From assembly GCA_005885025.1 (NCBI GenBank), contig VAYC01000014.1, forward strand, positions 1 through 27,350: DNA of 27,350 nucleotides, read 5' to 3'. The stretch's first letter is position 1, and every line of letters starts with the position of its first letter. Below are positions 837 to 5,295 of the stretch, piece by piece. This DNA comes from Actinomycetota bacterium (GTDB taxonomy: Bacteria > Actinomycetota > UBA4738). The notes under the pieces were generated by a model. The model saw nothing but the letters and a program-made list of their open reading frames with translations. It did not search any database and was not told the DNA's origin. The position numbers and the translations under genes are program-made.

Positions 837-866
837 TTGACATCACCCTTTCCCAGTCGCTAGCAT
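837..866 (+). promoter_or_regulatory. Housekeeping sigma factor promoter for the rpsL superoperon
   Basis: TTGACA (837-842), 18-nt spacer, TAGCAT (861-866), about 170 nt upstream of the rpsL ATG. Confidence 0.75.
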
Positions 867-875
867 TGTCTACTG

Positions 876-985
876 CGGCTCGGATTGGCCGGGCCGTTAG
901 TAGCATGTCTTGAGCGGACCCCCTAAGGGAGCAGCCGGTCACCCGTGTTCCCTGGGGCCTCGGCCGGGCGGCCGGGCCTTTTTGT
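876..985 (+). promoter_or_regulatory. Candidate structured 5' leader (attenuator) of rpsL
   Basis: Hairpin CGGCTCGG/CCGGGCCG (876-896). GGCCGGGCC occurs twice (887-895, 970-978), and both copies can pair with 956-965. Terminator-like hairpin at 954-985. Confidence 0.5.
954..985 (+). terminator. Intrinsic terminator-like hairpin inside the rpsL leader
   Basis: GGCC(T)CGGCC-GGGC-GGCCGGGCC stem with 9 G-C pairs and one bulge, followed directly by TTTTTGT (979-985). Confidence 0.6.
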
Positions 986-1037
986 CAGACTCGATAAGGG
1001 GCGAGCAGGCGAGAGATAGCGTGCAGACGAGAGAGCT

Positions 1038-1421: not shown

Positions 1422-1892
1422 ATGCCACGGAAAGGAGCTGCCTCCAAGCGCGAGATCACGGCTGATCCCGTCTACCAGAACGCCCTGGTCACCCAGCTGA
1501 TCAACAAGGTCCTGCTGAACGGGAAGAAGGCCCTGGCGGAGCGGATCGTCTACAAGACGCTCGAGGTCGTGTCCGAGCGGACGGCCAACGATCCGGTCAT
1601 CGCGCTCAAGAAGGCGGTGGACAACGCCCGACCGTTGTTGGAGACGCGGTCCCGGCGGGTGGGCGGAGCCTCATACCAGGTCCCGGTGGAGGTTCGGCCT
1701 CACCGGGGAACCACGCTCGCCCTCAGGTGGCTGGTGAACTACGCGCGCCAGCGGAAGGAGCATTCCATGGCCGATCGCCTGGCCGCGGAGATCATGGATG
1801 CCTCATCCGGGCAGGGAGCCTCGGTGAAGCGGCGAGAAGACATGCACAAGATGGCTGAGGCGAACAAGGCGTTCGCCCATTACCGGTGGTAG
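1422..1892 (+). CDS. rpsG: 30S ribosomal protein S7
   Basis: [15 protein letters not shown] and [15 protein letters not shown]; follows rpsL. Confidence 0.99.
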
Positions 1893-1927
1893 CAGCGGTG
1901 GCCACCGCGGCGAGGAAGCTGAATCCG

Positions 1928-4069
1928 ATGGCACAGGCGGCACGGGAAGCGGTGAAGGGAACCGGAGGGGCCGGCAAGGCCCTGGTGATCCGGGAATACC
2001 CGCTCGTCCGCACTCGGAACATCGGGATCATGGCCCACATCGACGCGGGCAAGACCACCACGACCGAGCGGATCCTCTACTACACGGGCAAGTCCTACAA
2101 GGTCGGAGAGGTCCACGAGGGCACCGCCCAGATGGACTGGATGGTTCAGGAGCGCGAGCGCGGCATCACCATCACCTCGGCGGCCACGACCTGCCTGTGG
2201 AAGGACCACTGGATCAACATCATCGACACCCCCGGCCACGTGGACTTCACGGTGGAGGTGGAGCGGTCGCTCCGAGTGCTCGACGGCGCGGTGGCGATCT
2301 TCGACGCGGTGGCGGGCGTGGAGCCCCAGAGCGAGACCGTGTGGCGGCAGGCCGACCGCTATCACGTCCCCAGGATCTGCTTCGTGAACAAGATGGACCG
2401 GGTGGGGGCGGACTTCGAGCGGACCGTCCAGATGATCGAAGAGCGTCTGCACGCCACCCCCCTGGTGATCCAGCTCCCCTGGGGCGTGGAGTCCTCCTTC
2501 ATCGGAGTGATCGACCTCATCGAGATGAAGGGTCTGCGGTGGGCGGAAGGGATGGGCGAGTCTTGGGAGACGGTAGAGATCCCCGAGGAGCTCCGGGCGA
2601 AGGCCGAGGAATGGAGGCACCGGCTGTTCGAGCGCCTCGCGGACCACGACCCCGAGCTGATGGAGAAGTACGTCCACGGGGGAGAGCCGACGTCCGAGGA
2701 GCTGCGGCGCGCCCTTCGCAAGGCCACGCTCGAGGTGACGGGGACCCCCGTGCTGTGCGGCTCAGCTTTCAAGAACAAGGCCATCCAGCCGCTGCTGGAC
2801 GCCGTCGTGGCGTTGCTCCCCTCGCCGGTCGACGTGCCGCCCGTGCGCGGGGTCGACCCGGAGACCGGTGAGGAGGCCATTCGAGAGGCCAGCGACGAAG
2901 AGCCTTTCTCGGCCCTCGCGTTCAAGATCATGTCCGACCCCTTCGTGGGCCGGCTCACCTACATCCGCGTGTACTCGGGGATCCTCCGGACGGGCGCCCA
3001 CATCCAGAACTCCACAAGGGACCGGAAGGAGCGGATCGGCCGGATCCTCCAGATGCACGCCAACCACCGGGAGGACATGGAGGCCGCGTTCACCGGGGAT
3101 ATCGTGGCGGTAGTCGGGCTCAAGCACACCACCACGGGCGATACGCTGTGCGACCCAGCCAACCCCATCGTCCTCGAGTCGATGCAGTTCCCAACCCCGG
3201 TGGTGTCCGTGGCCATCGAGCCGAAGACCAAGGCCGATCAGGACAAGCTGTCCAGCGCGCTGGGCCGGCTGGCCGACGAGGACCCCACGTTCGTGGTGAA
3301 GGTCAACGACGAGACCGGCCAGACGTTGATATCGGGCATGGGGGAGCTGCACCTCGAGGTGCTCGTCGACCGCCTGACCCGCGAATTCAACGTGGGTGCC
3401 AACGTCGGAAAGCCTCAGGTGGCATACCGGGAGACGATCCGCAAGGCCCTCCACAAGGTCGAAGCCAAGTACATCCGCCAAACCGGCGGTCGCGGGCAGT
3501 ACGGCCACGTGGTCATCGACCTGGAGCCGCTCGGATCGGGCGGCGGCTACGAGTTCGTCAACAAGATCGTGGGCGGGACCATCCCCAGGGAGTACATCCC
3601 GTCGGTCGACCAGGGCATCCAGGAAGCGATGGAGTCCGGCGTGGTGGCCGGATACCCGATGGTCGACATCCGGGCCACACTGATCGACGGGTCCTACCAC
3701 GAGGTGGACTCCTCGGAGATCGCCTTCAAGATCGCAGGGCAGATGGCGTTCCGCGAAGGCGCCCGGAGAGGCGACCCGGTCCTGCTCGAGCCGGTCATGG
3801 AGTTCGAGATCCTCACCCCGGAGGAGTTCATGGGTGACGTCATGGGCGACGTGACGTCCCGCCGGGGCCGGATCGAGCACATCGACGAGCGGTCCGGGAT
3901 GCGGGTGATCCGCGTGGTTGTCCCACTGGCTGAGCTGTTCGGCTATGCCACCGACCTGCGGTCCAGAACTCAGGGCCGAGCTTCACACACGCCCATGCAG
4001 CTGCATGCCTACCAGGAGGTCCCGGCCCAGATCTCGCGGGAGATCGTGGCCCGAGTCCGAGGGGAGTAG
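1928..4069 (+). CDS. fusA: Elongation factor G (start at ATG 1928 or GTG 1985)
   Basis: [40 protein letters not shown] and [13 protein letters not shown]. Start uncertain: 1928 has GAGGA upstream, while 1985 matches the usual EF-G N-terminus. Confidence 0.98.
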
Positions 4070-4104: not shown

Positions 4105-5295
4105 ATGGCCAAGAAGAAGTTCGAGAGGACCAAGCCGCACGTCAATATCGGGACGATCGGCCACATCGACCACGGCAAGACCACGCTGACCGCGGCCATC
4201 ACCAAGGTGCTGTCGGAGAAGGTGGGTGGGATCAACAACTACATCCCATTCGATCAGATCGACAAGGCGCCGGAAGAGCGCGAGCGTGGGATCACCATCC
4301 AGATCTTCCACGCGGAGTACGAGACCGCGAAGCGGCACTACGCCCACGTGGACTGTCCGGGGCACGCCGACTACATCAAGAACATGATCACCGGAGCCGC
4401 CCAGATGGACGGGGCCATCCTGGTGGTCTCGGCGGCCGACGGGCCCATGCCCCAGACGCGGGAGCACGTCCTCCTGGCCCGCCAGGTGAACGTGCCCTAC
4501 ATCGTCGTGGCCCTGAACAAGGTGGACATGGTCGACGACCCCGAGCTCCTCGACCTGGTCGAGCTGGAGGTCCGTGAGCTCCTGTCCTCCTACGAGTTCC
4601 CCGGCGAGGAGGTCCCGGTGATCCGGCTCTCCGCGCTGAAGGCGCTGGAGGGTGACGAGCAGGCCAAGGCCCAGGTCATGGAGCTCATGGACGCCGTCGA
4701 CAACTCGATCCCCGAGCCCGTGAGAGACGTCGACAAGCCGTTCCTCATGCCGATCGAGGACGTCTTCTCGATCACCGGCCGCGGCACCGTGGTCACCGGC
4801 AGGGTGGAGCGCGGCGGCCTGAAGAAGATGGAGGAGATCGAGATCGTCGGCATCAAGCCCACCAAGAAGACGGTGGCCACCGACCTGGAAATGTTCCGCA
4901 AGCTCCTGGACGACGTCCAGGCCGGCGACAACGTCGGTGTGCTGCTGCGGGGCATCGACAAGGACGACGTGGAACGGGGACAGGTCCTGGCCAAGCCGGG
5001 CACGATCACCCCGCACACCGAGTTCGACACCCAGGTCTACGTGCTGTCGAAGGAAGAGGGCGGGCGGCATACGCCGTTCTTCCCCGGCTACCGGCCGCAG
5101 TTCTACTTCCGGACGACCGACGTGACCGGGGCCATCACGCTCCCCGAGGGTACGGAGATGATCATGCCGGGTGACAACACCACCATGAAGGTTGAGCTGA
5201 TCGCTCCAATTGCGATGGAGGAAGGTCTCAGGTTCGCCATCCGCGAGGGGGGCCGCACCGTCGGCGCCGGAAGGGTCGTGAAGATCCTGAAATGA
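4105..5295 (+). CDS. tuf: Elongation factor Tu
   Basis: [24 protein letters not shown] and [10 protein letters not shown]; GAAGGAG SD upstream. Confidence 0.99.

Follow-up and report, generated by a model that had tools for sequence, protein, structure and literature searches.

A conserved structured leader upstream of rpsL in an order of uncultured soil Actinomycetota

The leader of the Escherichia coli S10 operon is controlled by L4- and NusA-dependent attenuation, in which the terminator hairpin lies within the recognised structure and no RNA-only antiterminator is required. Stabilising stem-loops are found at the 5' termini of other mRNAs, such as ompA in E. coli and aprE in B. subtilis. 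For rpsL, the described leaders are "multiform" premature-terminator elements that have no structure common across lineages, with examples from Listeria, Xanthomonas, Pseudomonas and Rickettsia (Naville & Gautheret 2010, PMC2965389), and the r-leader survey of Eckert and Weinberg lists no S12 or S7 leader for Actinobacteria (PMC7247131). Each lineage has its own rpsL leader, and none has been described for Actinomycetota (PMC2965389, PMC7247131).

We analyzed a stretch of Actinomycetota DNA of 27,350 nt (hereafter the window), in which rpsL is preceded by a leader that fits this multiform, ribosomal-protein-leader kind and lies outside every catalogued family. Like the multiform leaders, it sits in the str operon between promoter and rpsL (44/44 matches lie directly upstream of rpsL), carries a hairpin and U-run in the 5' UTR (in this genome, and in 28/44 leaders overall), and belongs to a single lineage, with no sequence common to the versions of other lineages. 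Unlike them, it occurs in a different phylum, among uncultured soil Actinomycetota, and matches nothing in Rfam. The published elements are drawn with an alternative antiterminator, whereas none is conserved here, and the terminator arm belongs to a three-way junction and has often lost its U-run. The leader also resembles autoregulatory r-leaders in having a conserved, covarying secondary structure upstream of r-protein genes (15/24 pairs, 93%). It adds to the known leaders a covariation-supported RNA motif of ~110 nt, confined to an uncultured soil order.

A first-pass annotation of the sequence had suggested an Rfam search, and this search left the leader uncatalogued: none of the 4227 models of Rfam 15 matched at the gathering threshold anywhere in the window, and relaxing the cutoff to E<=10 over 700-1150 returned just a spurious 10.9-bit IRES match upstream of the promoter. 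These models presumably include rpsL_psuedo and rpsL_ricks, which we take to be the multiform rpsL leaders, together with r-protein leaders and riboswitches.

The leader lies downstream of an incomplete ORF that stops at 759 and heads a dense cluster of genes on the + strand. The first four are rpsL (1038-1409), rpsG (1422-1892), fusA (1886-4069, the longest frame, with its first start a GTG at 1886) and tuf (4105-5295). Only 12 nt separate rpsL from rpsG, the longest fusA frame overlaps the 3' end of rpsG (1886-1892), and the spacing from fusA to tuf is 36 nt. High-GC3 ORFs on the same strand continue, with gaps of at most ~45 nt, as far as ~17.8 kb. Tightly packed translation genes over ~17 kb (1038 to ~17.8 kb) is thus a fair description of what the leader precedes, and the first-pass figure of about 17 kb agrees with this packing. 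The cluster from rpsL to 17.8 kb may be one transcription unit, with internal promoters possible.

Ahead of the leader is a sigma-70-type promoter on the + strand (837-866), with TTGACA (837-842) and TAGCAT (861-866) separated by an 18-nt spacer, matching the consensus at 10/12 positions. The near-consensus promoter noted at first pass is therefore present, and it is also conserved: TTGAC[A/G]-17/18-TAnnnT occurs in 42/44 homologous leaders, mostly 8 nt ahead of the first hairpin (P1, below). Besides those of the leader, the + strand of the 27-kb window has no promoter-like or terminator-like site. Judged by the position of the promoter, transcription is predicted to start near 872-875.

To ask how widely this arrangement is shared, we read 260 nt upstream of rpsL in each of 40 relatives found by an S12 protein search. 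Most of them follow a common plan, consisting of a promoter, a 5' hairpin that opens with GCGG, the CCC-N-AAGGG box, a second hairpin with base AGGGAG/CUCCCU, the trinucleotide UGG, a third hairpin GCCGGRCC/GGYCCGGC, a U-run or none, a variable stretch, and a purine-rich block GUGCAGACGAGAGAGCY directly before the AUG. Two covariance models were built from such leaders, R1 from 17 and R2 from 30. In the window's own genome, R1 gave one strong match, at 870-985 (82 bits; the next best had E 0.35), and in the covariance-model searches the leader was found once per genome, always just upstream of rpsL. Among 151 sampled genomes of the window's order, R1 matched 28 and R2, at E<=0.01, matched 42. 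The families differ widely in their R2 matches, with 6/6, 3/3 and 2/2 in three of them, 5/10 in the window's own family and 24/115 in the largest one. Genomes drawn to represent the class all carried the label of this same order, and in a phylum-wide sample 0/140 Actinomycetota genomes outside the order matched. Scanning for the exact pattern together with the start-site block likewise returned only MAGs of uncultured "Actinomycetota bacterium". Each of the 44 aligned matches is upstream of an rpsL start reading ATG-CCN-ACN (Met-Pro-Thr), no more than 160 nt away. Two of the 44 aligned sequences, L004 (genome G030) and L028 (genome G018), are from unpublished genomes, and no conclusion depends on either.

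One genome, G023, carries the leader at the ends of two contigs (C87:19-126 and C97:16-123; L070 and L096), and the two scores are identical. Rather than a true second copy, this most likely reflects duplication of the contig ends during assembly.

The leader comprises three hairpins. The first, P1 (875-897, + strand), has 9 bp (875-883/889-897) around the loop AUUGG, with a folding energy of -16.5 kcal/mol (z -3.3); it extends by one pair the 8-bp hairpin (876-883/889-896) recognized at first pass. P1 covaries strongly without conserving its sequence: among the 44 leaders, 7/7 modelled pairs have changed on both sides, with 95.8% of cells paired. A linker that differs in length and sequence among the aligned members (898-916) separates P1 from a conserved box, G-A-CCCCC-U-A (917-925), in which G917 and A925 are at least 95% conserved. 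Directly after this box comes P2 (926-953), which is conserved yet was absent from the first-pass description. Its base pairs AGGGAGCA (926-933) with UGUUCCCU (946-953), its tip is variable, and its energy is -13.9 kcal/mol; 6/8 pairs show changes on both sides in the 44 leaders, with AAGGG and CCCU nearly invariant. The third hairpin, P3 (954-983), pairs 955-959 and 961-965 with 970-979 to give 10 bp with U960 bulged and a GGGC loop (-20.1 kcal/mol), followed by a U-run at 979-983. In P3, 98% of cells are paired in the 44 leaders, double changes occur in only 2/7 pairs, and the stem sequence GCCGG...CCGGCUU is strongly conserved.

The alignment as a whole supports this architecture. Across the 44 sequences, 93.2% of cells form standard pairs, whereas sliding the partners by 1-3 columns leaves 25-57%; fitting the alignment to the model works in favour of the pairing scores, but the margin is large. 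Compensatory changes on both sides occur in 15/24 pairs, and 0/500 shuffles reach any of the five measures. Conservation and covariation in relatives, which the first-pass annotation had named as the test of its reading, were thus found for the leader as a whole, and the element is very probably a conserved, cis-acting structured leader. Conservation is highest around the meeting point of the helices, at G917, A925-G928, C951-U953, G957, C959, G962, C973, G975, G976 and U979. The junction nucleotides AAGGG, CCCUGG, GCCGG and CCGGCUU form the most conserved part of the leader.

Outside the window's family (the window's family being f1), the 10-14 nt before AAGGG pair with a stretch that begins ~5 nt past P3, as in GGGGGACC/GGUCCCCC, GGGUACCC/GGGUACCC, GGGGCC/GGCCCC and CAGGG..CC/GG..CCCUG. 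The 27 non-f1 leaders contain 24 distinct 5' strands, with a mean of 10.7 bp, and the helix is more stable when the two strands come from the same leader than when they are mismatched (-15.8 vs -14.2 kcal/mol, permutation p 0.0008). L004 is among its clearest examples. On this comparative evidence, a long-range helix spanning the U-run is shown to close P2 and P3 into a three-way junction in these families. Its 5' strand corresponds to the 917-925 box. In the window's family the equivalent runs, CCCC (919-923) and GGGG (998-1001), are conserved and hardly vary (p 0.07), so we leave the closing helix there as a candidate. In the window itself, the 917-925 box is accordingly a candidate partner of GGGG 998-1001, and GGGGCGAG (998-1005) a candidate 3' strand of the closing helix. 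The motif GGGGCGA is found 12-17 nt past P3 in most f1 leaders, and its putative pairing with the C-run is conserved within the family with barely any variation.

A screen of all pairs among eleven modules recovered only P1, P2, P3 and the long-range helix. Two further pairings were considered and set aside. An extension of P2 through the C-run and the GGG at the foot of P3 is possible in the window, and f5 leaders read GGAAGCC at that position, so the extension is unconserved. Pairing of the pyrimidine-rich linker (GUCUUG, CUCUUG) with CGAGAG of the start site appears in single folds and is unsupported by the module screen.

In the window, P3 looks like an intrinsic terminator, with a GC hairpin (955-979) and a T-run (979-983), and the sequence features described at 954-985 at first pass are indeed there. 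Across relatives, a U-run of at least 4 follows P3 in 28/44 leaders, comprising 22/27 outside the window's family and 6/17 inside it; it is lost in 11/17 leaders of that family and kept in 2/3 of the window's genus. Mycobacterial RNA polymerase requires a U-tract in vitro, and NusG helps at weak ones (PMC3993855). Given this requirement and the loss of the U-run from 11/17 family leaders, termination cannot be the conserved output of P3. In this genome, P3 might terminate a fraction of transcripts, a proposal to which we give a little less than an even chance. The three-way junction is conserved beyond what a terminator needs, and the conserved stem sequence, together with the junction, points to recognition of P3 by a factor.

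Read-through of P3 bears on another reading, in which the ~110-nt transcript from P1 to the U-run is itself the product, an independent small RNA, and rpsL is transcribed separately. A strong promoter followed 110 nt on by a hairpin and U-run would suit such an RNA. We nevertheless consider this extremely improbable: no promoter-like site was found between 985 and 1037 in a scan of the window, many members have no U-run, and the long-range helix spans the U-run, so that the read-through RNA is under selection. Moreover, a contig of 259 nt from a soil metatranscriptome covers 889-1147 with 2 differences and thereby bridges P3 into rpsL. The leader, P3 and the rpsL coding sequence so lie on one molecule, bearing in mind that RNA libraries can contain DNA. 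Such contigs cannot show transcript starts, ends or levels, and the contig's beginning at 889 cannot be read as a 5' end. Four RNA runs gave no cover over 500-865 and low cover from 866 on; these too are contigs, and so not evidence of a start. The stretch is present in DNA and RNA runs from soil metagenomes.

The first-pass annotation had read the leader as a three-part switch, in which the 3' arm of P1 (887-895) acts as an antiterminator by pairing with the 5' arm of the terminator (956-965), and P1, by sequestering that arm, acts as an anti-antiterminator. The basis of this reading was a 9-mer, GGCCGGGCC, present twice, and both copies are where it placed them, the first inside P1 (887-895) and the second inside P3 (970-978). 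Within the window the proposed duplex is a strong one, at -19.4 kcal/mol when the loop is included and -13.1 for the arms by themselves, and ~10/44 leaders reach -12 kcal/mol or better. We compared duplex energies between arms of the same species (matched) and of different species (mismatched), in 29 and then 44 leaders. Genuine helices separate clearly in this test (P1, -14.0 vs -8.7; P3, -17.1 vs -13.9 kcal/mol; both p<0.0001), whereas the 3' arm of P1 with the 5' arm of the terminator gave -8.85 matched vs -8.25 kcal/mol mismatched. A pooled p of 0.008 for this pairing vanished within groups, where no signal was seen (p 0.115 in f1, 0.46 in non-f1). Other cross-pairings were weak as well; the best, the 5' arm of P1 with the 3' arm of the terminator, had p 0.011 in f1, which would fail correction for ~110 tests.

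The remaining evidence points the same way. The median energy of the switch duplex is about half that of P1 or P3, and in a leader of the same genus (L083), which lacks the 9-mer repeat, it is -7.5 kcal/mol against -15.9 for P1 and -14.5 for P3. The 9-mer occurs 3 times in the window where 1.9 are expected, a count reached by 29/100 shuffles, in keeping with the first-pass caveat that short GC-rich repeats arise by chance. Both hairpins are rich in GGCC/CCGG, so their arms cross-pair promiscuously; in GC-rich DNA such arms do so readily, and a repeated 9-mer is thus no evidence of a switch. No element competes for the 5' arm of P1, and P1 stays folded in a transcript truncated before the 3' arm of the terminator (873-969). 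A search for a leader peptide returned only AUG-UCU-UGA at 905-913, and the switch has no such peptide or other sensor to drive it. With no covariation behind the antiterminator, which is weak in most leaders, and no competitor to make P1 an anti-antiterminator, we judge the three-part switch very improbable. The earlier reading is right in kind and wrong in mechanism: an undescribed, conserved and structured rpsL leader with a terminator-like hairpin stands, and the switch logic does not.

A further stem proposed at first pass, GACC 917-920 with GGTC 937-940 around CCC-TAA-GGG, proved specific to the window, with GGTC falling in the variable tip of P2. The GGG instead pairs with CCC 950-952, and the neighbouring pairs covary. 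The CCC-UAA-GGG mini-hairpin was also rejected: in the box ahead of AAGGG some members have CUCUCGA, AACCGAA or GAACCAA, so that CCC/GGG self-pairing is unconserved.

We favour the interpretation that this is a lineage-specific structured 5' leader of an rpsL-rpsG-fusA-tuf unit, probably a longer one, and that it is likely bound by a protein of the operon, a proposal we regard as evenly balanced. That the leader is regulatory through such a protein, with binding predicted by analogy, is a more tentative claim. Under this proposal, P1 would protect the 5' end of the mRNA constitutively, and the P2-P3 junction would be the binding site of a trans-acting factor, most likely a ribosomal protein encoded downstream. 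Where the U-run survives, as in this genome, P3 would be a leaky intrinsic terminator, and factor binding could tune read-through. No RNA-only alternative fold would be needed, a parallel to how L4 controls the E. coli S10 leader, and the 9-mer repeat would have no conserved role. By analogy with that leader, the element proposed here would be protein-responsive and head a long r-protein operon; its sequence and fold are unrelated, and L4 is encoded ~5.5 kb downstream, perhaps on the same transcript. The E. coli precedent makes S7 the first candidate factor, as does the 12-nt gap between rpsL and rpsG, which leaves no room for an operator of the E. coli type. The S7 operator of E. coli, intercistronic between rpsL and rpsG in the str mRNA, belongs to the same operon, with presumed feedback on the synthesis of S12, S7 and elongation factors. 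Unlike that operator, the present element lies upstream of rpsL, in an operon whose rpsL-rpsG gap is 12 nt, and bears no sequence or structural likeness to it. A point against the protein-bound reading is that the junction lies ~35 nt from the rpsL AUG, too distant to mask the start site directly.

When four leaders were locally aligned to a 16S rRNA of the order, they scored no better than shuffles (p 0.28-0.63), giving no evidence of rRNA mimicry as far as sequence likeness goes, and this too weighs against that reading. In one leader (L004:1341-1455), P2 resembles 16S helix 27 at 16/19 positions (GGGAG..CGG.CGCAAGG); the score is within those of shuffles and the tip of P2 is variable, so the likeness is probably due to chance.

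In most members P1 starts ~8 nt past the -10 box, and nothing competes for its 5' arm, so it looks like a hairpin that sits constitutively at the 5' terminus. Counted from the -10 box, P1 begins 8 nt on in 19/42 leaders and mostly 7-14 nt on. Like the stabilising 5'-terminal stem-loops of other mRNAs, P1 coincides with the predicted 5' end or is 1-3 nt away from it, and it probably protects that end; unlike them, it is one module of a larger conserved RNA, and the start site here is predicted. This role for P1 is shared by a plainer account, in which P1 and the junction set mRNA stability or processing, P3 provides fixed attenuation and nothing is sensed. Such a ligand-free leader would be consistent with P1's position, which in almost every member is the predicted 5' end, the lack of any conserved alternative pairing in the module screen, the evolutionary lability of the U-run, and the presence in the order of several unrelated leader forms that have only P1 and the start-site block in common. 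We still hold it to be unlikely, since the junction nucleotides and P3 stem are far more conserved than a stability element or terminator requires, and r-protein operon leaders of this size are usually regulatory by precedent (PMC2965389, PMC7247131).

The same conserved junction nucleotides, with their variable helix tips, are aptamer-like, and the element heads ~17 kb of translation genes. A metabolite or alarmone riboswitch, with the junction as aptamer for a small molecule of growth state and P3 as expression platform, might be imagined on these grounds. We find this quite improbable, given that the module screen revealed no mutually exclusive expression-platform fold and no covarying competitor, many members lack the U-run, Rfam has no matching riboswitch model, and there is one copy per genome, only at rpsL, while metabolite riboswitches usually serve several operons. 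A similarly long shot is that a new riboswitch or factor-sensing RNA uses the P2-P3 junction as its aptamer for a growth-state signal such as an alarmone, a nucleotide or a free ribosomal component. If true, a single site would gate a ~17-kb superoperon encoding S12, S7, EF-G, EF-Tu and S10/spc-type r-proteins, and would do so across a whole uncultured soil actinobacterial class. Returning to the protein-bound leader that we favour, its position ahead of what may be a single 17-kb unit of translation genes makes it a good candidate for balancing ribosome synthesis. The alignment provides a ready family of the Rfam type, and also a defined RNA with which binding by S7 and the cluster's other r-proteins can be tested.

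Downstream of P3, the window's family carries its own boxes (986-1005), CAGACUC at ~986-992 followed by GGGGCGAG. The first of these reads CGGACUC in relatives and is conserved within the family between P3 and GGGGCGA; no pairing partner was predicted for it. Closer to the gene, the purine-rich block GUGCAGACGAGAGAGCU together with the rpsL AUG (1038-1040) occupies 1021-1040, and this stretch contains no canonical Shine-Dalgarno sequence and no GGAGG. The block GUGCAGACGAGAGAGCY-AUG is kept even in related MAGs with different leaders (L032, L036-L039, L044-L062), and the 16S 3' end in a relative of the same order is the ordinary CACCUCCUUUCU. A conserved block without GGAGG, despite an ordinary 16S end, suggests that initiation of S12 translation may be unusual and possibly regulated.

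Many genomes of the order do not have the motif and carry other leaders instead. At least four other structured forms of rpsL leader occur in related MAGs (L024/L062, L037-type loci, L021/L026 and L005/L040); the genomes that carry L005, L021, L024 and L026 belong to the window's order. These forms keep a P1-like 5' hairpin and the start-site block and replace the P2-P3 junction, and some retain a CCCCAAGGG box. The leaders of these other genomes have only the P1-type hairpin and the start-site block in common, so the "multiform" pattern of rpsL leaders appears, from these comparisons, to hold even within one order.

Upstream of the promoter, a 20-nt box at 817-836 abuts the -35 hexamer. It reads CGTTTGCCCAGGTCGGTGCG here and GTTT[GC]CGCAGGTCG[CG]CGCG in relatives. 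Different genera of the window's family conserve it, and it may serve the rpsL promoter as an UP-like element or as a site for a regulator.
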